Source: Salegentibacter sp. (GTDB taxonomy: Bacteria > Bacteroidota > Bacteroidia > Flavobacteriales > Flavobacteriaceae). Taken from it: 64,000 nt of DNA. The notes beneath the pieces are model-generated. The model made no database searches. It saw only the letters and a list, made by a program, of their open reading frames with translations, and was not told where the DNA came from. Of the stretch, positions 5,108 to 63,360 are shown one piece after another. Position 1 is the stretch's first letter, and each line of letters starts with the position of its first letter. Both the position numbers and the translations under genes were made by a program. The DNA is taken from the NCBI GenBank assembly GCA_017795085.1, contig CP051246.1, positions 806,514 through 870,513 on the forward strand, in the 5' to 3' direction.

Positions 5108-5167
5108 TTACACCTTTATTACACCTCGATGTTAAAATTTGTATTCCAGGTGTAATAAATTACACCT
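5108..5167. promoter_or_regulatory. Putative integrase arm-type binding sites
   Basis: TTACACCT at 5108, 5119 and 5160 and inverted at 5148. The same octamer occurs at 40334 next to attR. Confidence 0.6.
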
Positions 5168-5208
5168 TGTTTTATTTTTTTAGCTATCTTTATGAAAAAC
5201 AAGTAGAT

Positions 5209-6351
5209 ATGAAAATAAAGCTAAAAAAGAAGAAACTTGCTTCCGGAAAATATAGTCTTTATATCGAATATTATAAAGGAACCATACAAGATGAGGATGG
5301 AAAACAAACTCATAATAGGGAATTCGAATACCTTAGAGAATACCTATTTGTTAATCCTAAAGATAGTTTCGAGAAGAATAAAAATGAAGAAACCTTATTA
5401 AGGGCAGAACAGATACTATCGATTCGAAAAGCGGAATATGCCCAGGGAAAATATGGTATAAAAGATAAAAGTAAGGAGAAATTTCTCTTTCTAACTTATT
5501 ACGACAAAATTAAAGAAGAGCGTTATGAGAGCAAGGGGAATTACGACAATTGGGATGCCGCTCAAAATCATATCGAGGATTATATTGGGAAAAGGAAAAT
5601 AACTTTTGAGGATGTTGATGAGGATTTCGTTTTAGGATTTAAAAAATACCTGAATAATAAAGCTAAAACAAAGTCTAATACTCTTCTATCCCAAAACTCC
5701 AAATACACTTATTACAATAAATTTAGGGCTGCTTTACGCCAGGCTTTTGACGATGGATATACCCGGCGAAATTTTGCTACAACGGTCAAAGGATTTGCTC
5801 AGGGGGAAACAACACGGGAATACCTTACGCAGGAGGAATTACAAGCTATGGCAACAGCCTACTGCAAGCACCGGGTACTTAAAAATGCATTTATGTTTAG
5901 TTGTTTAACCGGGCTTAGATGGAGTGATATAAACAAACTGACCTGGCTTGAAGTTAGGGATGAAGAGGAAGGATCCCGCTTAATTTTTAAGCAAAAGAAA
6001 ACCTCGGGACAGGAATATCAATATATTTCCAACCAGGCAAGACAGCTTTTAGGAAAAAGAAAAAGAGACAATGCCCGGGTATTCCAAGGTTTAAAATACG
6101 GAGCCCATTTTAATTCAGAAATACTGAGATGGTGTATGCGGGCCGGTATAACTAAACACATAACTTTTCATAGTGCCAGACATACTCACGCCGTCCTACT
6201 ATTGGAATATGGTGCTGATATCTATACTGTCTCAAAAGTTTTGGGACATAAAGAAATAAGAACCACCCAGGTTTATGCAAAGATTGTAGATAAGAAAAAG
6301 AAGGAAGCAGCCAACCTAATTCCTGAACTTGAAATGGATTATGAGTTTTGA
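5209..6351 (+). CDS. Tyrosine recombinase/integrase (Bacteroidota arm-binding + SAM-like + catalytic domains). Probable start ATG 5209
   Basis: TGLRWSD, HSARHT, LGHK and TTQVYAK catalytic motifs. N-terminal KKKKLASGKYSLYIEYY arm domain. Confidence 0.95.
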   Translation: MKIKLKKKKLASGKYSLYIEYYKGTIQDEDGKQTHNREFEYLREYLFVNPKDSFEKNKNEETLLRAEQILSIRKAEYAQGKYGIKDKSKEKFLFLTYYDKIKEERYESKGNYDNWDAAQNHIEDYIGKRKITFEDVDEDFVLGFKKYLNNKAKTKSNTLLSQNSKYTYYNKFRAALRQAFDDGYTRRNFATTVKGFAQGETTREYLTQEELQAMATAYCKHRVLKNAFMFSCLTGLRWSDINKLTWLEVRDEEEGSRLIFKQKKTSGQEYQYISNQARQLLGKRKRDNARVFQGLKYGAHFNSEILRWCMRAGITKHITFHSARHTHAVLLLEYGADIYTVSKVLGHKEIRTTQVYAKIVDKKKKEAANLIPELEMDYEF

Positions 6352-15833: not shown

Positions 15834-16285
15834 TTGCCTATAGAATTACAAAGAAAAAATGGATTAAAGATTTAAGCGGAACCGGAGCGAAATTAACGGG
15901 GGGACGCTGGAACCCGAAAGGCTTTCCTGTTTTATATTGTGCATCAACCTCTTCTTTAGCTATTTTGGAAAAATTAGTTCACGTTGATTTTGATCTCTTG
16001 CCAGATGACCTATTTATTGCAGAATTGGAAATTCCTGAAAATAGCATTGAAGAATTAACATTAAAAAATTTACCTAAGCATTGGAATAAATATCCAGGTC
16101 CGGATAGCCTCAGGTCACTTGGAAAAAAATGGCTTATGGAAAATAAATACCTAATTCTTAAGGTGCCAAGTGCCGTAAACCCAAATGAAACAAATTATCT
16201 AATTAATGTAGATCACTCGGATGCCGATAAAATCAAAATCATAAAAACCTATCCTTTTGAAATTGATAATCGGTTGATAAAATAG
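15830..16285 (+). CDS. RES-domain toxin (NAD+ phosphorylase family)
   Basis: AYRI, GGRWN, YCASTSSLAILE, LKVPSAV and NYLINV. Confidence 0.92.
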   Translation: MIAYRITKKKWIKDLSGTGAKLTGGRWNPKGFPVLYCASTSSLAILEKLVHVDFDLLPDDLFIAELEIPENSIEELTLKNLPKHWNKYPGPDSLRSLGKKWLMENKYLILKVPSAVNPNETNYLINVDHSDADKIKIIKTYPFEIDNRLIK

Positions 16286-16359
16286 AGCGAGTTTTATCAA
16301 ATATTGATCTTCAAAAAAATATGTAGCCCACGCAGTTGTAAATATTTCAAACATTATGT

Positions 16360-16388
16360 AATCACTTTTAAATTATTTAAAAGTGATT
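16360..16388. terminator. Perfect 12-bp-arm hairpin between the RES gene and the RNA array
   Basis: AATCACTTTTAA-ATTAT-TTAAAAGTGATT. Confidence 0.55.
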
Positions 16389-16396
16389 TCTACGTT

Positions 16397-16465
16397 ACTG
16401 TATGTGCTGTTCGCATTTAGTGAGTGTTGATCATAACCTCACCTTACGGGTGTACAGGCACCCTC
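16397..16465 (-). ncRNA. Putative dCas12f guide-RNA scaffold, distal copy (diverged)
   Basis: 56/69 identical to the middle copy. Most changes fall in predicted loops. Confidence 0.7.
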
Positions 16466-16539
16466 GAATTTACAACCTCTTACCATTTCTCTTCACTATT
16501 TATATCTTGGAGTGATCACATTAAGTGAGAGCCCACGCC

Positions 16540-16608
16540 GTTGTATATGCTAATCGCATTTAGTGAGTGTAATTTCCAACCTCACCTTGCGGGTGTACAA
16601 GCACCCTC
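16540..16608 (-). ncRNA. Putative dCas12f guide-RNA scaffold, middle copy
   Basis: 67/69 identical to the proximal copy. Followed by GGCGTGGGCTCTCACT. Confidence 0.8.
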
Positions 16609-16714
16609 TTAATTATTCATTTATAAATTATAGCACCTGAAATTTCTTATTTGGTATAGTAAGTAATTACCTTTAGGATTCTGGACAATCTGTTAAAAAA
16701 TAAGTGAGCCCACG

Positions 16715-16783
16715 GTTGTATATGCTAATCGCATTTAGTGAGTGTAATTTCCAACCTCACCTTACGGGTTTACAAGCACCCTC
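16715..16783 (-). ncRNA. Putative dCas12f guide-RNA scaffold, proximal copy
   Basis: GAGGGTGCTTGTAAACCCGTAAGGTGAGGTTGGAAATTACACTCACTAAATGCGATTAGCATATACAAC starts 10 nt after the dCas12f stop. It has three predicted hairpins and is followed by CGTGGGCTCACTTATT. Confidence 0.8.
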
Positions 16784-16792
16784 GTAAAATCA

Positions 16793-17893
16793 TCAATCTG
16801 TTATCAATTCAATGCCGGCTTTTTCGGCTTTGTATTTTATTTTGGCCATCAGTTTATAATAGCTCCAGTTCCGCAATACAAATTCCTCCTCTTTGGCAAT
16901 TTCCATTTTATTCTCCTGATTCATTAGAATTAGTGTGCCTGCCTGGTGCTTTACGCAAAAGTCAATTAATTTCCGACTGTAGAGGTGCAGCCGATTAGTC
17001 ACATAATTCTTTTCTAACTCGTGAAATCTTTGCACTGCTTTTGTTTTTCGCCTGCGCCCTTTACCTGATTTTGCATAGGTTACTCCTTCCTGTGCCCTTT
17101 TACGGGCGGCTTGTATCGCAAGCCTACGGTATAAGAATTCTTCCCGGCTGCCGATGTTCAGTTTGTTCTTACCGGCTTTAACTATAATGGGGTATTCCAG
17201 CGACAGAGAAGCCTCGGCGATCACATTAGATTTTAAGCTGTGCTTTTCTTTTTCAATTTCAAATGTGGCCAGCAAAAAAGTTTTGTCATTTTTCAATTGA
17301 ATGTGGGAAGTACATAGCTTTGTCTCCCCTGCTATTACCCGCTCCAGTAGCTTGCGCTTATCGGAATAATCCCTTCCTAAATATGTTTTTAGCGGAATGG
17401 AAAACAAACGAAAACAAAAGGCTTTTTTCTCTTCATCATAACATAATCCTTTAATGCCATCCATATCAAACGGAAAAGCCATATCCCTTTTAAAGTTCAT
17501 TAAGGAACGTTCGCCCTTCCAGTATTCTACCTTATTTTTCTGAAACGTACCCATTAAATTGTGGTTGATATTGCCTAAAATGTTGGTAGGGATTTCCCCT
17601 TTATAGCGGTCGGACACTACCCGGTAGGTGGCATTGATGCGGGAGCGGTTCAGGATGCCGGCTTCATCTTTCTTTTCATCGGCCAGTTTATATTTTATCC
17701 CTTCGGTTAAATAAAAGAATTCCTGGATCATTTCCTGAACGTAAAGATGGCTAATAATAAGATTAGCCGCCTTGAAGCTGCGGTTGCGCCACTGGTAGAG
17801 TTTATCCAGAGCCTCCTTCCGTTCTTCTTTGGTAGGCAGATCAACCAGTAACTGGATCTTTCGGGTGAGTTTTATAGTATCTTTTCCCATCAC
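16793..17893 (-). CDS. Nuclease-dead Cas12f/TnpB-like RNA-guided DNA-binding protein (dCas12f)
   Basis: TnpB/Cas12f layout: TRKIQL start, YLGRD wedge region, bridge helix, LHLYSRKLIDFC, NWSYYKLMAKIKYKAEKAGI. RuvC-I GIDLG is replaced by AEASLS, the RuvC-II Glu is absent (LILMNQ), and the protein stops before the zinc finger and RuvC-III. Confidence 0.85.
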   Translation of the reverse strand: MMGKDTIKLTRKIQLLVDLPTKEERKEALDKLYQWRNRSFKAANLIISHLYVQEMIQEFFYLTEGIKYKLADEKKDEAGILNRSRINATYRVVSDRYKGEIPTNILGNINHNLMGTFQKNKVEYWKGERSLMNFKRDMAFPFDMDGIKGLCYDEEKKAFCFRLFSIPLKTYLGRDYSDKRKLLERVIAGETKLCTSHIQLKNDKTFLLATFEIEKEKHSLKSNVIAEASLSLEYPIIVKAGKNKLNIGSREEFLYRRLAIQAARKRAQEGVTYAKSGKGRRRKTKAVQRFHELEKNYVTNRLHLYSRKLIDFCVKHQAGTLILMNQENKMEIAKEEEFVLRNWSYYKLMAKIKYKAEKAGIELITD

Positions 17894-18675
17894 TAAGCCG
17901 ATTGTTGTTGTTCGTGTTTTAGCTGCAAAAGTTTATATGCTGCCATAAATTCTTTGTGGACCTTCTTTTGGGAAAGGTTGAGCTCATTTGCAATGGCAGC
18001 AAAAGAATACTGCTTTTCTGTACGTAGCTGTAAGACCTTTTTCTGGTCCTCGGTCATTTTGCCCTGTAGCTTTACCGCCAGCATCGGTTTTGGTTTGGTT
18101 TCCAAATTGCTCCCCTGGTGAATGATGTTTTTAATATCCTCGATCGCCCGTTTTACCTCGTTGCTGGTGTAGGTAATACTGGTTCCCATAAGCTGAGCAA
18201 TGGCTTTATACTGAAAACCGTATTTTAAACAGAGTTCAATTAGGTGTCGTCTTTCAGGGCTAAGTAAAGGGAAAACACGGCTTACCCGGTCGAAGGCTTT
18301 CTGCTGGGTCTCGCTATCCAACAGATGTTCATCCTCCTTCTCGGGGTCATAGCCGTGCATGTATTTTTCATAGTCCTCATAATATTCCAGGCGGTTGATG
18401 TTTCGGTAAAAATTATTCTTAGGTCGGGCATAGTAATAGGTACAATCCCTTTTCATTACATAGCGAAGAAAAAAGAAAATATGTTCCGGGCGTTCTATCC
18501 CATCTCTATTTTCCCATAGTTTCAGGAAAGTATCCTGAAGGATGGTCTCAATGACGAATTCATCCCGAATTAATTGCTTTCCTAACCAAAAGAGCCTTCG
18601 GTGGTACCTGGCATAAATTAATTCCAGGGCATCGGGATGGCCTTCTTGTAATAATTTAAAAATACGCTGTAACAT
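17893..18675 (-). CDS. ECF-type sigma factor (sigmaE-like) with an extra C-terminal HTH, translationally coupled to dCas12f
   Basis: Sigma region 2 (IYARYHRRLF...ILQDTFLKLW), region 4 (LSPERRHLIEL...YKAIAQLMG) and a second region-4-like HTH (MTEDQKKVLQL...FAAIANELNLS). Its stop abuts the dCas12f start. Confidence 0.88.
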   Translation of the reverse strand: MLQRIFKLLQEGHPDALELIYARYHRRLFWLGKQLIRDEFVIETILQDTFLKLWENRDGIERPEHIFFFLRYVMKRDCTYYYARPKNNFYRNINRLEYYEDYEKYMHGYDPEKEDEHLLDSETQQKAFDRVSRVFPLLSPERRHLIELCLKYGFQYKAIAQLMGTSITYTSNEVKRAIEDIKNIIHQGSNLETKPKPMLAVKLQGKMTEDQKKVLQLRTEKQYSFAAIANELNLSQKKVHKEFMAAYKLLQLKHEQQQSA

Positions 18676-18780
18676 AATAAGTTAAATTTAAACTTTCATA
18701 CTATGTAGGTTTTTCAGATCATTAGGAAGAACTTTTACAATATGATTAATAAAAATGCTTACAAGTCTTCTAATAACACT

Positions 18781-18865
18781 CAAATATAATGAAATTTTAT
18801 AACTAATGGTACAGGTACCTTTGTTAAAGATTTAATTATGTTCCTAATTGTAGCCTCGGAACATA
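18781..18865. promoter_or_regulatory. Divergent promoters and candidate operator
   Basis: TATATTTG on the minus strand (18781-18788), TACCTTTG on the plus strand (18815-18822) and the inverted repeat TATGTTCC-N13-GGAACATA (18837-18865). Confidence 0.55.
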
Positions 18866-18869
18866 GCTC

Positions 18870-19097
18870 GTGGCAAGTAAAATTGAAATCTATATTATTA
18901 AAAAGGTAAGAGATAAGAGAAGGGAGAAAGGCTTATCTCAAATAGCTCTTTCCCAAAAATTAAATTTAAGTGATAGTTTTGTTTCCCATGTGGAATCAAA
19001 AAATAGAAGAGCAAAATACAACCTTAACCACTTAAACGAAATTGCTTTAATTCTGGAATGTTCTCCCAAAGATTTTTGGCCTGAAAAGCCACTTTAA
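18870..19097 (+). CDS. Xre-family HTH regulator, divergent from the sigma-dCas12f operon
   Basis: VRDKRREKGLSQIALSQKLNLSDSFVSHVE...YNLNHLNEIA. GTG start. Confidence 0.88.
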   Translation: MASKIEIYIIKKVRDKRREKGLSQIALSQKLNLSDSFVSHVESKNRRAKYNLNHLNEIALILECSPKDFWPEKPL

Positions 19098-58248: not shown

Positions 58249-58827
58249 CTGGCTAACAACACGATAAATAACTCTTTTTTTATTGACCGTCTTAAAAAAG
58301 GTGAAGACACGGCCTATGAAACGCTGTTTCGCATTTACTTCGATAAATTGTGCTATTTTGCAAAAAGCTATATTGAGGATGAAGATGAAGCTAAAGAAAT
58401 AACCCAGAATGTTTTCTTCAAATTCTGGCAAAAGAGGGCTACTTTGACTATCGATTCAAATTTAAATGCCTATTTGTTCAGAATGATAAAAAATGAGTGT
58501 TTAGATTATTTTAAACATCAAAAAGTTAAAGTTAGCTACCAAAATAATATTCAAAGTGAAAGAGCAGCACTTAACCAAGCTTCTTTACAGGATAATCCCG
58601 GATTACTTTTGATTGAGAGCGAATTAGAAGTAAAGGTGAATCAGATACTCGATGATCTGCCACCACGTTGCAAGCAAATTTTTATAAAGAGTCGATTCGA
58701 AGGCTTAAAATATAAAGAGATTGCAAAAGAAATGAATATTTCTATTAAAACTGTGGAGCATCAAATTGCTAAAGCTTTGCGTTTATTTCGTCGAGAACTT
58801 CAAGAATATATGGGACTTTTCTTATAA
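58249..58827 (+). CDS. ECF sigma-70 factor (Bacteroidota PUL-type). Probable non-ATG start (CTG 58249)
   Basis: The frame is open from 58243 after a TAA: LKKGEDTAYETLFRIYFDKLCYFA...EITQNVFFKFW...LPPRCKQIF...YKEIAKEMNISIKTVE. Confidence 0.88.
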   Translation: MANNTINNSFFIDRLKKGEDTAYETLFRIYFDKLCYFAKSYIEDEDEAKEITQNVFFKFWQKRATLTIDSNLNAYLFRMIKNECLDYFKHQKVKVSYQNNIQSERAALNQASLQDNPGLLLIESELEVKVNQILDDLPPRCKQIFIKSRFEGLKYKEIAKEMNISIKTVEHQIAKALRLFRRELQEYMGLFL

Positions 58828-58906
58828 TTCATTAAATAAATCTTAAAAAAATAATTAACCGAATAGGGGGAAACTTATTCTGTATCGTCATATCTATATA
58901 GGACTT

Positions 58907-59881
58907 ATGAAAAAAGAAGATTTAATACGATTTATAAAGGGAACGGGAGACTGTAAGTTTCAGCAGTCAGTGATTGATTGGGTGAAATCTTCCGCTGAAA
59001 ACAGAAGTCATTATAATAAGGTTAAAGCCGAATATGTGAGTAAGTTTGGTACGGGCGATCACCTGGATATAGATATTGAAAAAGAATTTGATCGGTTTCA
59101 AATTAAAAAGCAAAGAAGCTATAGTAGAACTTTGTTTACCAGGATTGCTGCAGTAATAACTATTGCACTTCTTACCGCAGGGGGCTGGTTTTTAATGCAA
59201 AGTAATCTGTCCTCTGAGCCCTTGGCTATTTATAAAGCTGAGCCAAGTTCTATGGAGGAGATTATCTTACCTGATGGGAGTAAGGTTTTTCTAAACTCTG
59301 AAAGTGTTATAAAAATATCTAATGCCTTTAACCAATCAAATCGTGAAGTCACTCTTGAGGGGGAAGCATTCTTTGAAGTTCAGAAAAACAAGAGCAAACC
59401 TTTTCTTGTGAATACTGAGTCTAACCTACAAATAAGGGTGTTAGGCACTAGCTTTAATGTTAAGTCTTATAAAACAGATCAAATTATTGAAACCACTTTG
59501 GTGAGTGGAAAAGTGGAACTTTTGCAAAAGAATAAAAGCCAGGCTGTGATTGCACTTTCTCCGAATCAAAAGGCAAGCTATAATAAATTGGAAGATAAAC
59601 TGAATGTGGATATTGTTAGTACTGGAGAAATTACTTCCTGGAGAAGTGGAGTACTAATATTTGACAATGAGCCTGTACAAAATGTTATCAACAATCTGGA
59701 AAGATGGTATGATGTTAAGATTCAAATTGAAGACAGGGAGATTAAAACATATACATTTTCAGGAAAAGTGAATCGGGAAAAAAACATAGAAGAAGTTTTG
59801 CAACTTATTGAGGCTTCGTCGCCTGTAAAATATGAATACGATGAAAACAAAAAGACTTTTATTTTAAGAGGAGACAAATAA
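58907..59881 (+). CDS. fecR: FecR-family anti-sigma factor
   Basis: TM helix, LPDGSKVFLNSES, REVTLEGEAFFEV, VLGTSFNV and LERWYDV. Confidence 0.92.
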   Translation: MKKEDLIRFIKGTGDCKFQQSVIDWVKSSAENRSHYNKVKAEYVSKFGTGDHLDIDIEKEFDRFQIKKQRSYSRTLFTRIAAVITIALLTAGGWFLMQSNLSSEPLAIYKAEPSSMEEIILPDGSKVFLNSESVIKISNAFNQSNREVTLEGEAFFEVQKNKSKPFLVNTESNLQIRVLGTSFNVKSYKTDQIIETTLVSGKVELLQKNKSQAVIALSPNQKASYNKLEDKLNVDIVSTGEITSWRSGVLIFDNEPVQNVINNLERWYDVKIQIEDREIKTYTFSGKVNREKNIEEVLQLIEASSPVKYEYDENKKTFILRGDK

Positions 59882-59885
59882 AAAG

Positions 59886-59913
59886 TAAGGGAAGTGCGGC
59901 AACACCTCCCTTA
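59886..59913 (+). terminator. Hairpin between fecR and susC (terminator or leader element)
   Basis: TAAGGGAAGTG-CGGCAA-CACCTCCCTTA. Confidence 0.55.
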
Positions 59914-59970
59914 TTGTTTAGCATTGTTTCTTGATGTGTGAACTAGAGTAATAACTAAACCTTCAAAACT

Positions 59971-62900
59971 ATGAAAAAAAAGTTGAATGGCCCTATGCCT
60001 AATGGCTGTACGGATGATTTTTCTAAAAAATTAATCAGAATTATGAAAATCTATTCCTTAATCTTATGCCTAACCATTGTAAAAATTTCCGCAGCTAGTT
60101 TTACAGTTCATGGGCAAAGCATTAAGCTGGATTATCAGGATACGGAATTGCGCACGATCCTCTCGGACCTTGAAGCGCAAACAGATTACAATTTTTTCTA
60201 TAATAATAAATTGGTAGATGAAAATATGAAAATTAATATTAACTATTCTAGTGAGAATGTTAATGAAATAATGAATCATATTTTAAAATCTACTAACGTA
60301 AATTTTAAAATAATAAATAACAATATTGTCTTATATACTGAGGTTTTGCCGGAAGCCAGGGAAAATATGAATAGCCCAAACCTGAAACGTAAATTAACTC
60401 AGCACGTTAATGCACTTAATTTTAACAAGTTTCAACAACAAATTAGCGGAAAGGTTGTGGATAACAATGGGTTACCTTTGCCGGGTGTAAATGTTATTAT
60501 TCAGAATACGAGCCAGGGAACCCAGACCGATTTTGATGGAGCCTTTAGTATAGAAGCAGAAGAGGGAGATGTATTAGAGTTTAGTTATTTAGGTATGGAG
60601 TCTCAAACCTTCGCAATTTCCGATGTTGAAGACTCCATTGAAATAGTTATGATAAACGATGCAGATCAGCTTAGTGAAGTTTTGGTTGTTGCGTATGGGA
60701 AACAAAGCAGAGCGTCGTTTACCGGAGCTGCAGTAGATGTTGATGTTAGTAAAATTGACGAGTCCCCGCTAGCTTCCTTCCAGGAAAGTTTACAGGGGAA
60801 TGTTGCAGGTCTACAGATGTCCACCGAAAGCGGTCAGCCCGGAGCATCACCTAATATAAGGATAAGGGGAATCGGCTCTATTAATGCCAGTTCAGACCCC
60901 CTATATGTTGTAGATGGAATTCCCGTAGTATCAGGTGATATTTCTCAGATAGCAACAAGTTCAAATACAATTGCAGGAATCAACCCTAAGGATATAGAAA
61001 ACATAACAGTTTTAAAAGATGCTTCAGCTACTTCTATTTACGGATCAAGAGGTGCTAATGGGGTTATTCTCATCACTACTAAGCAAGGAAAAGAGGGGAA
61101 GACTACTTTTGAAATTGGCGCACAGCGAGGGATAAGTCAAATGATATTACCTGACCGAAATAAGCCTCTTAATACAGCTCAACATTTAGAATTATTAATT
61201 GAAAGTAGGGTGAATACAGGTGATACCCAGCAAGAAGCAGAGGATTTTATATATAATAGTGTGGATAGAACTATTGATACCGACTGGGAAGATGTTATTA
61301 CGCGAAATGGAACTTACGAGCAGTACAATGTGAGTGCCAGCGGGGGCTCAGAGAAAACACAATTCTTTGCTTCCCTCGGGATGTACAAACAAGAGGGTGT
61401 AATTATTGGGATAGGCTATGATAAATTAAATGCCCGGTTAAATGTTAATCATCAAGCCAATGACAAACTAAAAATTGATTTTGGAATAGCTGCAAATAAT
61501 CAGAAACTCAACACTAATAGTGATGCAGGAAGTGCACATAATCCGGTACGTGCTTTGGCTAGAGTTGTTCCGTGGGAGCCGGTTTATAATGAGGATGGGA
61601 GTTACAATACCAATATTCTTCTTACGTATAATCCAGTGGGGCTTGTAGAAGAAAATATTCGAGAAACTAAAATATATGGAATTTTGGGGAATTTGGGTTT
61701 AACCTATGATTTTACTGAAAATCTTAGTTTTCAATCCAAAGGGAATATTGATTTTAATTTGGCCGATGAATTTCGTTTTGATAACCCGGTATTTGGAGAA
61801 GGAAGAAATGACGGCGGAAGAGGTCGGGCCTATAACAATAAGGTGATTAATTATAATATTACCAACCTGCTAAAATATAACTGGAATATAAATGAGAGTC
61901 ATAATCTGGATTTTACATTGGGTCAGGAAGCTCAAAGGATTGAAAGAAATTCGGTTTATGCTTACGTAAGTAATTATGGAGCGCCCGGTTTAACTACTTT
62001 GGAGAATGCCTCAGTTTATCGTAATGCAACAAACAGCCTAACTGCTTCTTCAATTTCCTCTTATTTTTTAAATGCAAGTTATGCCTTTAATGATAAATAC
62101 TATTTAAACGCCACGGCTCGTAGGGATGGATCCTCTCGGTTTGGTTCAGATGTTAGGTATGCCAATTTCGGCTCTGTTGGAGCAGCCTGGAATATTATGG
62201 CAGAAGATTTTATGAAAGATGTGGAACTAGTTAAGGAATTAAAACTACGATCCAGTTATGGTGTTAATGGAAATCAAGAAATCGGTAATTTTGCTTCTCG
62301 CGGATTGTATTCTACAGGAGCTGACTATAATGGTGAACCCGGATATGTCTATAGCCAACAATCAAATCCAACATTAACCTGGGAAAAAAATAAACCTTTT
62401 AATATTGGACTTGACTTTAATCTCAATCACCGAATAACCGGAACAGTGGAGTATTATACAAGAACTACTACTGACCTTTTATTTAATGTGCCAATCTCAG
62501 CTACTAACGGTATTACTAATTTCTTAGCCAATATTGGTGAAATGAAAAATTCAGGTTGGGAGTTTGCAGTCAACACTGTAAACATAGATAATCCGGAAGG
62601 TTTTAATTGGAACACAAATTTCAATATTACGACCAATGCCAATGAAATAACAAAATTACAGGATGATGAAGCTATTGTAGATGGAAATTATATAAGAGAA
62701 ATTGGAGATGATTTTTATACTTTCTATATGCCCGGTTTTGCGGGTGCCGATCCTGACAACGGTGAAGCTTTATGGTATACTGACGAGAGCGAAACAGCTA
62801 CTACTAATCAGTATAGTGAAGCTCAGCCATATAAGCAGGGAAGCGGTTTGCCTGATTTCTATTCAGGTTTAACCAATACGTTAAGCTATAAAGATTTAAG

Positions 62901-63360
62901 TCTCTCTTTTATGCTATATTTTAATTATGGCAATAAAGTTTATGATTATTGGGGCAGATATACTAACAGTGATGGAAGTGCTCAGCTTAATGATAGGGGA
63001 AATATGACCCAAAACATCTATGAAAACAGATGGCAAAATCCTGGTGATATTACTGATGTTCCTAAAGTTGTTTGGGGGAATTCTCAATCTGGGCTTTCGA
63101 GTCAGCATTCTACCAGATTTCTTTATGATGGTACTTATTTGAGACTAAGAGATGTTACTTTATCCTATAATTTACCTGAAAGTCTTATAGAGCGGATAAA
63201 GGTGAACAATTTCCGTTTGTACCTAAAAGGAAACAATCTTTTAACCTGGGTAAAAGATGATAAAATAGAAATGGATCCGGAGGTTGGAATCACAGGACAA
63301 TCTGACCTAAGAATACCTATTTCACGACAAGTTTTAGTGGGATTAGATCTTTCATTTTAA
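59971..63360 (+). CDS. susC: SusC/RagA TonB-dependent transporter with an N-terminal STN signalling domain
   Basis: ISGKV...LPGVNVII, IRIRG, PLYVVDG, LKDASATSIYGSRGANGVILITTK and terminal LDLSF. Confidence 0.96.
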   Translation: MKKKLNGPMPNGCTDDFSKKLIRIMKIYSLILCLTIVKISAASFTVHGQSIKLDYQDTELRTILSDLEAQTDYNFFYNNKLVDENMKININYSSENVNEIMNHILKSTNVNFKIINNNIVLYTEVLPEARENMNSPNLKRKLTQHVNALNFNKFQQQISGKVVDNNGLPLPGVNVIIQNTSQGTQTDFDGAFSIEAEEGDVLEFSYLGMESQTFAISDVEDSIEIVMINDADQLSEVLVVAYGKQSRASFTGAAVDVDVSKIDESPLASFQESLQGNVAGLQMSTESGQPGASPNIRIRGIGSINASSDPLYVVDGIPVVSGDISQIATSSNTIAGINPKDIENITVLKDASATSIYGSRGANGVILITTKQGKEGKTTFEIGAQRGISQMILPDRNKPLNTAQHLELLIESRVNTGDTQQEAEDFIYNSVDRTIDTDWEDVITRNGTYEQYNVSASGGSEKTQFFASLGMYKQEGVIIGIGYDKLNARLNVNHQANDKLKIDFGIAANNQKLNTNSDAGSAHNPVRALARVVPWEPVYNEDGSYNTNILLTYNPVGLVEENIRETKIYGILGNLGLTYDFTENLSFQSKGNIDFNLADEFRFDNPVFGEGRNDGGRGRAYNNKVINYNITNLLKYNWNINESHNLDFTLGQEAQRIERNSVYAYVSNYGAPGLTTLENASVYRNATNSLTASSISSYFLNASYAFNDKYYLNATARRDGSSRFGSDVRYANFGSVGAAWNIMAEDFMKDVELVKELKLRSSYGVNGNQEIGNFASRGLYSTGADYNGEPGYVYSQQSNPTLTWEKNKPFNIGLDFNLNHRITGTVEYYTRTTTDLLFNVPISATNGITNFLANIGEMKNSGWEFAVNTVNIDNPEGFNWNTNFNITTNANEITKLQDDEAIVDGNYIREIGDDFYTFYMPGFAGADPDNGEALWYTDESETATTNQYSEAQPYKQGSGLPDFYSGLTNTLSYKDLSLSFMLYFNYGNKVYDYWGRYTNSDGSAQLNDRGNMTQNIYENRWQNPGDITDVPKVVWGNSQSGLSSQHSTRFLYDGTYLRLRDVTLSYNLPESLIERIKVNNFRLYLKGNNLLTWVKDDKIEMDPEVGITGQSDLRIPISRQVLVGLDLSF

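Follow-up and report, generated by a model that had tools for sequence, protein, structure and literature searches.

Three 16-nt segments of a 64-kb stretch of the Salegentibacter genome, U1, U2 and U3, are probably the guides of three tandem guide RNAs (gRNAs) that belong to an island-borne module of nuclease-dead Cas12f (dCas12f) and a σE-type factor, with two good sites in this genome for the class of guide represented by U1 and U2. The stretch, called the window here, spans C1:806514-870513 of a genome made up of a single 4.73-Mb contig, and coordinates given without C1 are counted from its first nucleotide. Judged by homology, the window locus is a member of the Hoffmann/Sternberg dCas12f-σE system of RNA-guided transcription (Hoffmann, Wiegand et al., Nature 2026, PMC13472631; preprint PMC12259090; PDB 9n9c/9n9m/9n9o/9n9q), because both of its proteins match the solved dCas12f and RpoE structures; every testable feature of membership was found at the locus. 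The published gRNAs are 85–105 nt long, lie directly downstream of dcas12f and carry a guide of 14–16 nt at the 3' end; in Flagellimonas taeanensis, the experimentally characterized relative, the target-adjacent motif (TAM) is 5'-G and pairing over more than 10 nt is required, and transcription starts 46 bp downstream of the TAM, independently of promoter motifs (PMC13472631). The published targets precede susCD operons, two-component systems or rpoE-dcas12f loci and usually overlap an 'hth-associated ncRNA' (non-coding RNA), the 5' end of which resembles the conserved guide seed; some loci have several tandem gRNAs, and other rpoE-dcas12f loci are regulated in trans (PMC13472631). By homology with F. 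taeanensis, the gRNA-loaded dCas12f of the window would bind DNA in which a 5'-G TAM is followed by the guide sequence, and once bound would recruit RNA polymerase along with its partner, the sigma factor; no promoter motifs would be needed, and transcription would begin ~46 bp downstream of the TAM. That the gRNAs are expressed, that dCas12f binds and that genes are activated would all be expected by analogy. U1 and U2 would be two old alleles of the dominant guide class, mirroring the 5' arm of a hairpin ncRNA element.

Three direct repeats of ~90 nt, 175 and 143 nt apart, begin 10 nt past the dcas12f stop codon, and each consists of a conserved 69-nt scaffold ending in ACAAC or ACAGT followed by a 3' guide of ~16 nt. 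The three 16-mers lie on the minus strand where an earlier reading of the sequence alone (the sequence-only reading) had placed them, each right after its 69-nt scaffold. As that reading also held, they comprise two register-shifted near-duplicates and one unrelated guide: U1 and U2 have CGTGGGCT(C) in common, shifted by 2 nt relative to the scaffold end ACAAC, and U3 has only CGT in common with them. All three units fold alike, into three stem-loops with the 3' guide unpaired. This is not the organization of a CRISPR array, the repeats being whole scaffold-plus-guide units of ~90 nt and not 25–40-nt repeats alternating with spacers; no adaptation genes are found among the annotated neighbours. 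The features of the array are as follows, the nhmmer scores referring to a hidden Markov model built from 75 homologous scaffolds.

16715..16783, minus strand: gRNA unit 1 scaffold, 69 nt, GAGGGTGC...GCATATACAAC, direct-repeat family D1 (nhmmer E=6.5e-20).
16699..16714, minus strand (16714->16699): guide U1, CGTGGGCTCACTTATT, with the CGTG core at offset 0 and a T run after it.
16540..16608, minus strand: gRNA unit 2 scaffold, 69 nt, 67/69 identical to unit 1.
16524..16539, minus strand (16539->16524): guide U2, GGCGTGGGCTCTCACT, with the core at offset 2.
16397..16465, minus strand: gRNA unit 3 scaffold, divergent, ending ...ACATACAGT (nhmmer E=3.4e-18).
16381..16396, minus strand (16396->16381): guide U3, AACGTAGAAATCACTT, an orphan guide.
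16360..16388, no strand: perfect 14-bp A+T-rich inverted repeat I2, overlapping the 3' half of guide U3.
16313..16345, minus strand (16345->16313): truncated fourth gRNA unit, ATATTTACAAC|TGCGTGGGCTACATA+T7, repeat D3.

The whole genome was scanned with guide prefixes of 10–16 nt and 0–3 mismatches, and also with the published target filter, which asks for a 6-nt seed and for an intergenic site in the sense orientation <800 nt from an open reading frame (ORF). With at most 2 mismatches over 16 nt, U1 has exactly two matches in 4.73 Mb, both of 14/16: T_606 at C1:606312-606327(-), G|CGTGGGCTCTCTTATC (606312-606328 with the TAM), and T_L2up at C1:3092990-3093005(+), G|CGTGGGCTTGCTTATT (3092989-3093005 with the TAM). 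Both are intergenic, in the sense orientation and preceded by a 5'-G TAM, an adjacent motif of the kind that the sequence-only reading had proposed to look for, and both fall at one and the same alignment column of a ~190-nt element, of which the genome has three copies at 80–82% identity; none of 3000 shuffled guides attains 14/16 in the ncRNA-like elements. T_606 lies 532 nt upstream of an operon encoding SusC (1005 aa), SusD and an M16 peptidase, 217 kb from the array, with no mobile-element genes in the 15 kb examined around it, and T_L2up lies 203 nt upstream of rpoE2, in the second rpoE-dcas12f operon of the genome, 2.27 Mb from the array. U2 pairs at T_L2up with a TAM G, all 10 TAM-proximal nucleotides (C1:3092988) and 11/14 overall (C1:3092987-3093003(+) with the TAM), and at T_606 over 12 contiguous nucleotides (positions 2–13, C1:606316-606327). 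Thus TAM G, a perfect 6-nt seed, intergenic position and sense orientation are found together for U1 at both sites and for U2 at T_L2up. U1 and U2, both of the CGTGGGCT class, appear to match one conserved hairpin element at two chromosomal sites outside the window, in keeping with the earlier proposals that they address variants of one target family and that their targets lie elsewhere in the host genome. The further proposal, of a mobile element that would switch on host genes, fits the island-borne array and the candidate susC operon site, but the other site belongs to an rpoE-dcas12f operon that is itself island-like. The third copy of the element, T_4135, precedes a paralogous susC-susD-M16 operon; no guide for its core, GGCGTGTCATCCGACTTATC, is found in the Salegentibacter genome, and guides of the T_4135 class are present in the relatives L005 and L044.

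Several observations weigh against this assignment of targets. Pairing is imperfect at both U1 sites: at T_606 the TAM G is followed by a perfect 9-nt seed and 13/14 nucleotides match, with a mismatch at position 10, and at T_L2up 12/14 match, with mismatches at positions 9–10. With 10 contiguous nucleotides at T_L2up, U2 sits at the published minimum; at T_606 its position 1 is mismatched and the TAM is C, and its total matches are marginal, 12/16 being attained by 68 of 3000 shuffles. The number of near-matches is that expected by chance from composition (~1.7 for U1, where 2 were seen, and ~0.46 for U2), so that the evidence is the location of the sites, not their number; the matches above chance that had been predicted for the genome are borne out for their location in homologous elements but not for their count. 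The G TAM rule, moreover, is that of F. taeanensis and may not be that of this orthologue. Genome-specific covariation between guides and targets was not seen among 24 genomes (30 of ~70 elements), matches averaging 12.36 of 16 within and 12.29 between genomes. Finally, U1's perfect partner, CGTGGGCTCACTTATTG, occurs in other genera (L057, L059, L062, L067) and is absent from the Salegentibacter genome, so the array may be tuned to another host. Taken to its end, this argument would have the matches reflect homology without present function, an island array tuned elsewhere activating nothing here, and the lack of a U3 target in this genome and the failure of U2 to pass the published 6-nt seed filter at T_606 would also fit. 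We consider it unlikely. U1 at T_606 shows all of the published target features, ncRNA overlap included, and natural guide–target pairs in relatives are mostly of 12–16/16 with a TAM G, commonly with 1–2 mismatches. S. lacus carries the U1 guide with the same 14/16 pairing and the same mismatches (fetched target L061), and the native site of F. taeanensis JCM 17757 itself pairs at only 12/14. We thus favour the view that T_606 and T_L2up are sites of the U1/U2 class.

Other candidates were set aside. The best overall match of U2, GGCGTGGGCTTTCCCT (14/16; C1:2588902-2588917(-)), has a TAM C, lies outside the ncRNA-like element and, with ~0.46 such matches expected, is probably due to chance; a terminator flanks it on one side and, 144 nt downstream, a RuvC-like gene on the other, and it could be an off-target. 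An 118-aa ORF beside T_606 and an 82-aa ORF beside T_L2up were considered as helix-turn-helix (HTH) genes, but neither has a Pfam or NCBIfam match and both are unlike the HTH gene beside T_4135.

That the variable segments are guides is supported by comparison with 47 homologous loci (68 scaffolds directly downstream of dcas12f; 72 guides for the core and information counts), the closest of which are from Salegentibacter species at 93–94% identity, with F. taeanensis at 73%. In F. taeanensis JCM 17757, the guide in ACAAC|TTGTGGGATATACG matches G|TTGTGGGATACCCG in the susC leader, so that the boundary at ACAAC and the G TAM hold in the characterized relative, and with them the earlier placement of the guides. 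Information content falls from 1.3–2.0 bits per position over the last 9 scaffold positions to 0.05–0.76 bits over guide positions 1–15, and the 72 guides include 55 distinct 14-mers. Of the 72 guides, 50 have the CGTG core, at an offset of 0 nt (n=2), 1 nt (n=26), 2 nt (n=21) or 3 nt (n=1); the remaining 22 carry unrelated sequence and include that of F. taeanensis and all three second-locus gRNAs of the Salegentibacter genome. In S. lacus (L004) and Salegentibacter sp. HM20 (L102), the first gRNA has the same guide as U1, and the U2 guide is also present in Salinimicrobium marinum (L008). The sequence-only reading had named as fatal to itself the case in which CGTGGGCT is an invariant run of the scaffold. 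For CGTGGGCT(C) as part of an invariant scaffold or terminator, one can invoke the presence of the core in 50/72 homologous gRNAs, the T run that usually follows it and the orphan gRNA at C1:4140466, which forms GGCG-N7-CGCC+T7. There is next to no chance, in our view, that this is correct: the run is widely conserved, yet 22/72 gRNAs, among them the experimentally defined F. taeanensis guide and those of the second locus, are unrelated at that position; the distance from scaffold to core varies over 0–3 nt; conservation drops precisely at ACAAC|; and DNA upstream of susC and rpoE contains the same sequence, there preceded by a G TAM. From these comparisons, CGTGGGCT appears to be the family's conserved guide class, mirroring a conserved target, and not scaffold.

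The shift of register between U1 and U2 is explained most simply by slippage at the scaffold/guide junction, neutral because of a G run in the target. The conserved core of the target element reads GCTCACGACCC-GGG-CGTGGGCT[C/T]NCTTAT[C/T]G and the dominant guide class (G)(G)CGTGGGCT[C/T]NCTTAT; because GGG precedes CGTG, guides beginning at CGTG, GCGTG or GGCGTG all pair fully and keep a G TAM. Were a guide to begin yet another base upstream, the TAM would be C, which agrees with the offsets of 0–2 that are found and the near absence of 3. T_606 is exceptional (...AAACCG|CGTG) in having CCG in place of GGG, so that only the rare offset-0 guide, U1, retains a G TAM there; in the S. lacus target L061, the core is preceded by AGG. 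The two guides may split the two targets between them, with U1 acting at the susC site and U2 at that of rpoE2. Both alleles occur in other genera and are thus older than the window array. The sequence-only reading had also suggested that the offset tunes start-site spacing. As the start is set by the distance from the TAM/R-loop (PMC13472631), the two registers would indeed start 2 nt apart, for example at C1:3093033 and 3093035, but such a shift is without obvious consequence in leaders of 203 and 532 nt, and both starts fall alike at the beginning of the 3' arm of the hairpin described below. Offsets of 1 and 2 nt are, moreover, both common across genera (26/50 and 21/50), and nearly all targets have GGG, with which a G TAM is kept at either offset. 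Adaptive fine-tuning of the start is therefore highly improbable; retention of the TAM through the G run fits better, and would supply a rule for register differences between sister guides, in which a G-run TAM context tolerates offsets of 0–2 nt.

The element matched by U1 and U2 is found in 23 of the 24 dcas12f-bearing genomes, in 1–8 copies each, with the core GCTCACGACCCGGGCGTGGGCT..CTTAT. Its 3' part is predicted to form a long hairpin of ~64 nt followed by a U run, in which GCGTGGGCTCTCTTAT pairs with ATAAGTTGAGT(N)TCCACGC below a conserved apical stem GGUAU/GUACC (-24.7 kcal/mol for T_606 and -24.9 kcal/mol for T_L2up), and the guide-matching sequence is its 5' arm. An alignment of 29 sequences gives 20 predicted pairs, 3 with compensatory changes, and a covariation term of -0.77, which is small and lends the hairpin modest support. 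Counted 46 nt on from the TAM, the predicted guided start coincides at both T_606 and T_L2up with the opening nucleotides of the 3' arm. If transcription began at the 5' edge of the target, where the published ncRNA starts, the hairpin could form; an RNA begun at the predicted guided start would lack the 5' arm, and the hairpin could not form. The element also occurs in 18 of 150 sampled family genomes, of other genera, and a dCas12f homologue (E<=1e-20) was found in 5 of these 18; it seems able to exist without the dCas12f system, although draft assemblies or distant homologues may also explain this distribution. These features suggest a tentative model, about which we remain rather doubtful, in which the island module plugs into a pre-existing host hairpin and guided initiation doubles as a terminator bypass into susC and rpoE2, rewiring both, with the offset-0 guide U1 retaining a G TAM at a host site whose G run is eroded. 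The terminator bypass is what we infer from the present analysis: the text of PMC13472631 does not mention a hairpin and uses 'terminator' only for a reporter construct. The model nonetheless offers a hypothesis, open to test, on the hth-associated ncRNA, which has lacked an explanation: the guide match would be its 5' arm, with the predicted guided start just beyond. Two diverged copies of the hairpin element, C1:2945484-2945673(+) and C1:4105870-4106070(-) (GCGCCCACGTCTCGGCGTGGGCTGCTCTTG...GTTCCACGCTTTTTT), precede paralogous ORFs of 130–136 aa and have the 10-nt seed of U2, but a TAM C.

U3, by contrast with its sisters, appears to belong to a structurally intact gRNA whose guide is without a cognate site in the Salegentibacter genome. 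Such a site would read G|AACGTAGAAATCAC. The prefix scans of the whole genome gave no target above chance, the published filter returned 9 matches against 9.4 for shuffles, and the best match in five ncRNA-like elements is 9/16, under the shuffle mean. Two matches were rejected as chance: moving the boundary (ACAGTAAC|GTAGAAATCACTTT) gives an exact 14-nt match at C1:3389454, but within a 108-aa ORF that ends ...EITFDPPWTQELMSEEARLELGLL, and the match at C1:1275211 is internal to a small HTH gene. The scaffold of unit 3 shares no more than 60/69 positions with any of ~75 homologous scaffolds, and its conserved block closes ...GCACATACAGT, where the other units have GCATATACAAC. Possibly, U3 works and is not decayed, its target being off this chromosome, in another host, on a plasmid or on a mobile element; its scaffold retains the three stem-loops and scores like those of the other units (E=3e-18), and the island family moves between Salegentibacter strains. 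We regard this as conceivable, but not as the expected outcome. There is no guide related to U3 among ~80 homologous gRNAs, and in 150 family genomes its matches are about as frequent as those of a reversed-pattern control, with no excess of 1-mismatch matches and no exact copy outside the Salegentibacter genome. If the RNA is untrimmed, moreover, the 3' half of U3 would be locked in the 14-bp hairpin, the extended transcript folding at -33.1 kcal/mol (z=-4.0) with no U run after the inverted repeat, and the truncation of the downstream unit shows that this end of the array is decaying. The inverted repeat sits between the gRNA array and a convergent RES gene.

The truncated downstream, or fourth, unit consists of the final 11 nt of the scaffold, the guide TGCGTGGGCTACATA and T7, and it strongly resembles the 3' end of the sole gRNA of the closest relative, L101 (ATATACAAC|GGCGTGGGCTACTTATTTTTTG); it is a remnant, not a target. 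It carries CGTGGGCT at 16332->16325, a copy that had been overlooked when the guides were said to have no match beyond the array in the window; the statement otherwise stands, the exact CGTGGGCT occurring three times in the window (n=3) and always inside the array, and no guide match being found upstream of the window susC (59971-63360), as had also been noted. As a self-target, the copy at 16325-16332 was rejected, offering only the 8-nt seed next to the last 11 nt of a scaffold. If this seed, with its TAM G at 16333, were bound by U1, an RNA would be expected from the +46 rule to start at ~16287, antisense to the RES toxin gene, which ends at 16285; a start near 16287 is unlikely because only 8 nt would pair.

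The array completes a module in which hth, diverging from rpoE-dcas12f on the minus strand (hth <> rpoE-dcas12f), is followed by the three complete single-guide RNAs (sgRNAs). A divergent hth is the arrangement reported at rpoE-dcas12f loci (PMC13472631). The three genes are:

18870..19097, plus strand: hth, 75-aa Cro/C1-type HTH protein, divergent from rpoE (Pfam HTH_3, E=2.9e-6; HTH_26).
17893..18675, minus strand: rpoE, 260-aa sigma factor of the extracytoplasmic function (ECF) type with an extra C-terminal HTH domain.
16793..17893, minus strand: dcas12f, 366-aa nuclease-dead Cas12f.

The rpoE stop codon and the dcas12f start codon overlap at 17893. The 260-aa sigma factor matches PDB 9n9q_C 'RpoE' (E=5.4e-90; residues 1–257 of 261 aligned, C-terminal domain (CTD) included) and has the Pfam domains Sigma70_r2 and r4_2; NCBIfam places sigma2-sigma4 at residues 15–183 and a second sigma4-like stretch at 206–250. 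Among the annotated neighbours, no FecR gene adjoins rpoE. The 366-aa protein aligns with PDB 9n9c_A 'Nuclease-deactivated Cas12f' at E=1.1e-184 (query residues 2–364 on 1–363 of 365), has end-to-end matches to the chains of that name in 9n9c, 9n9m, 9n9o and 9n9q, and is 73% identical to dCas12f of the F. taeanensis locus L009; it matched no Pfam family. Its alignments to active Cas12f chains (415–539 aa) mostly end ~55–90 residues short of their C-termini, which fits the published C-terminal truncation of RuvC. No ncRNA-like element was found within the window, the hth-rpoE intergenic region included, and the locus is thus without the self-target that L102 and L044 have upstream of rpoE; in that region (18676-18869, 195 bp), the apical stem is only faintly resembled by AAGGTACCTGTACC. 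Rfam 15 gave 0 matches at the gathering score in the window, both the gRNA and the ncRNA being absent from Rfam 15, and no tRNA genes were found.

The genome contains a second complete rpoE-dcas12f locus, at C1:3093192-3095071, 75–77% identical to that of the window and followed by three gRNAs (through 3095540). Its guides (CCTTCCCTTTAAGA, CCCTCCCCTAAAGA and TTAATTCAATTAGC) have no target above chance in the Salegentibacter genome; each of its gRNA units is preceded by a duplicated 3' end of dcas12f, the guides there reading CCTTCCCTTTAAGATT, CCCTCCCCTAAAGATT and TTAATTCAATTAGCCT. With an integrase fragment, a TIR (CAP12) protein, AbiEii/AbiEi and IS110 as neighbours, this locus also looks island-borne. 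A third locus, at C1:4140149-4140474, is decayed to the last 78 codons of dcas12f and an orphan gRNA with the guide GGCGTGGGCATCGCC+T7. The guide resembles a small terminator hairpin. The locus lies 5 kb from T_4135 and its operon, and an insertion sequence (IS) transposase (DDE_Tnp_1_4) abuts the remaining dcas12f codons (region C1:4138643-4140474).

The window module is cargo of an integrative mobilizable island at mnmE, as an earlier assignment to a mobile element had anticipated. A tyrosine integrase (5167-6351) follows dnaN and mnmE, and past it come cargo genes, a VapE-like gene, a primase, a MobA relaxase, DUF6730, Xre-RES and then the gRNA array, dcas12f, rpoE and hth; beyond hth lie an AbiC-like gene, a type I restriction-modification system, IS copies and a second integrase fragment. 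The relaxase-DUF6730 neighbourhood also flanks the homologous locus in L044, L102 and L103 (Salegentibacter or metagenome contigs). With matches both at a susCD-peptidase operon and at a second copy of its own kind, itself island-like, the island-borne putative activator is a candidate for a regulatory cascade between a mobile element and its host. At the far end of the window (58348-63360) there is a canonical cluster of ECF sigma factor, FecR and SusC (STN domain), the classical counterpart controlled by an anti-sigma factor, which is unmatched by any of the guides.

As the dCas12f-σE system was published in 2025–2026, the window locus is mainly a clean natural example of it. It shares with F. 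taeanensis the hth <> rpoE-dcas12f-gRNA order, the CTD of σE, a homologous scaffold ending in ACAAC with a 3' guide, a G-TAM target upstream of susCD and the overlap of the guide class with the hth-associated ncRNA. It differs in having three tandem gRNAs and a truncated fourth where F. taeanensis has one, in its guide class (CGTGGGCT... here, TTGTGGGATA... there), in its place on a mobilizable defence island, in the lack of an ncRNA or self-target upstream of its own rpoE, and in one targetless guide. The match in trans to another rpoE-dcas12f locus corresponds to published category IV, and tandem whole gRNAs with similar scaffolds and guides after dcas12f are described for Leeuwenhoekiella palythoae and Paenimyroides ummariense (PMC13472631). 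The text of that paper discusses neither an offset between sister guides nor an orphan guide, and the word 'register' never occurs in it. With TldR and the ωRNAs of TnpB, the module has in common a domesticated, nuclease-dead protein of the TnpB/Cas12 type, a multi-stem scaffold with a 3' guide and promoter-proximal chromosomal sites; TldRs, however, repress and have no dedicated sigma factor, whereas the window module includes a CTD-bearing ECF sigma factor and is predicted to initiate transcription. Type V-F CRISPR-Cas12f has a homologous effector fold (PDB 9nzr, 9nzo and 7l48; E=6e-44 to 2e-4), but the window locus has no CRISPR array, trans-activating CRISPR RNA (tracrRNA) or adaptation genes; instead, whole sgRNAs are repeated and the C-terminal part of RuvC is gone.

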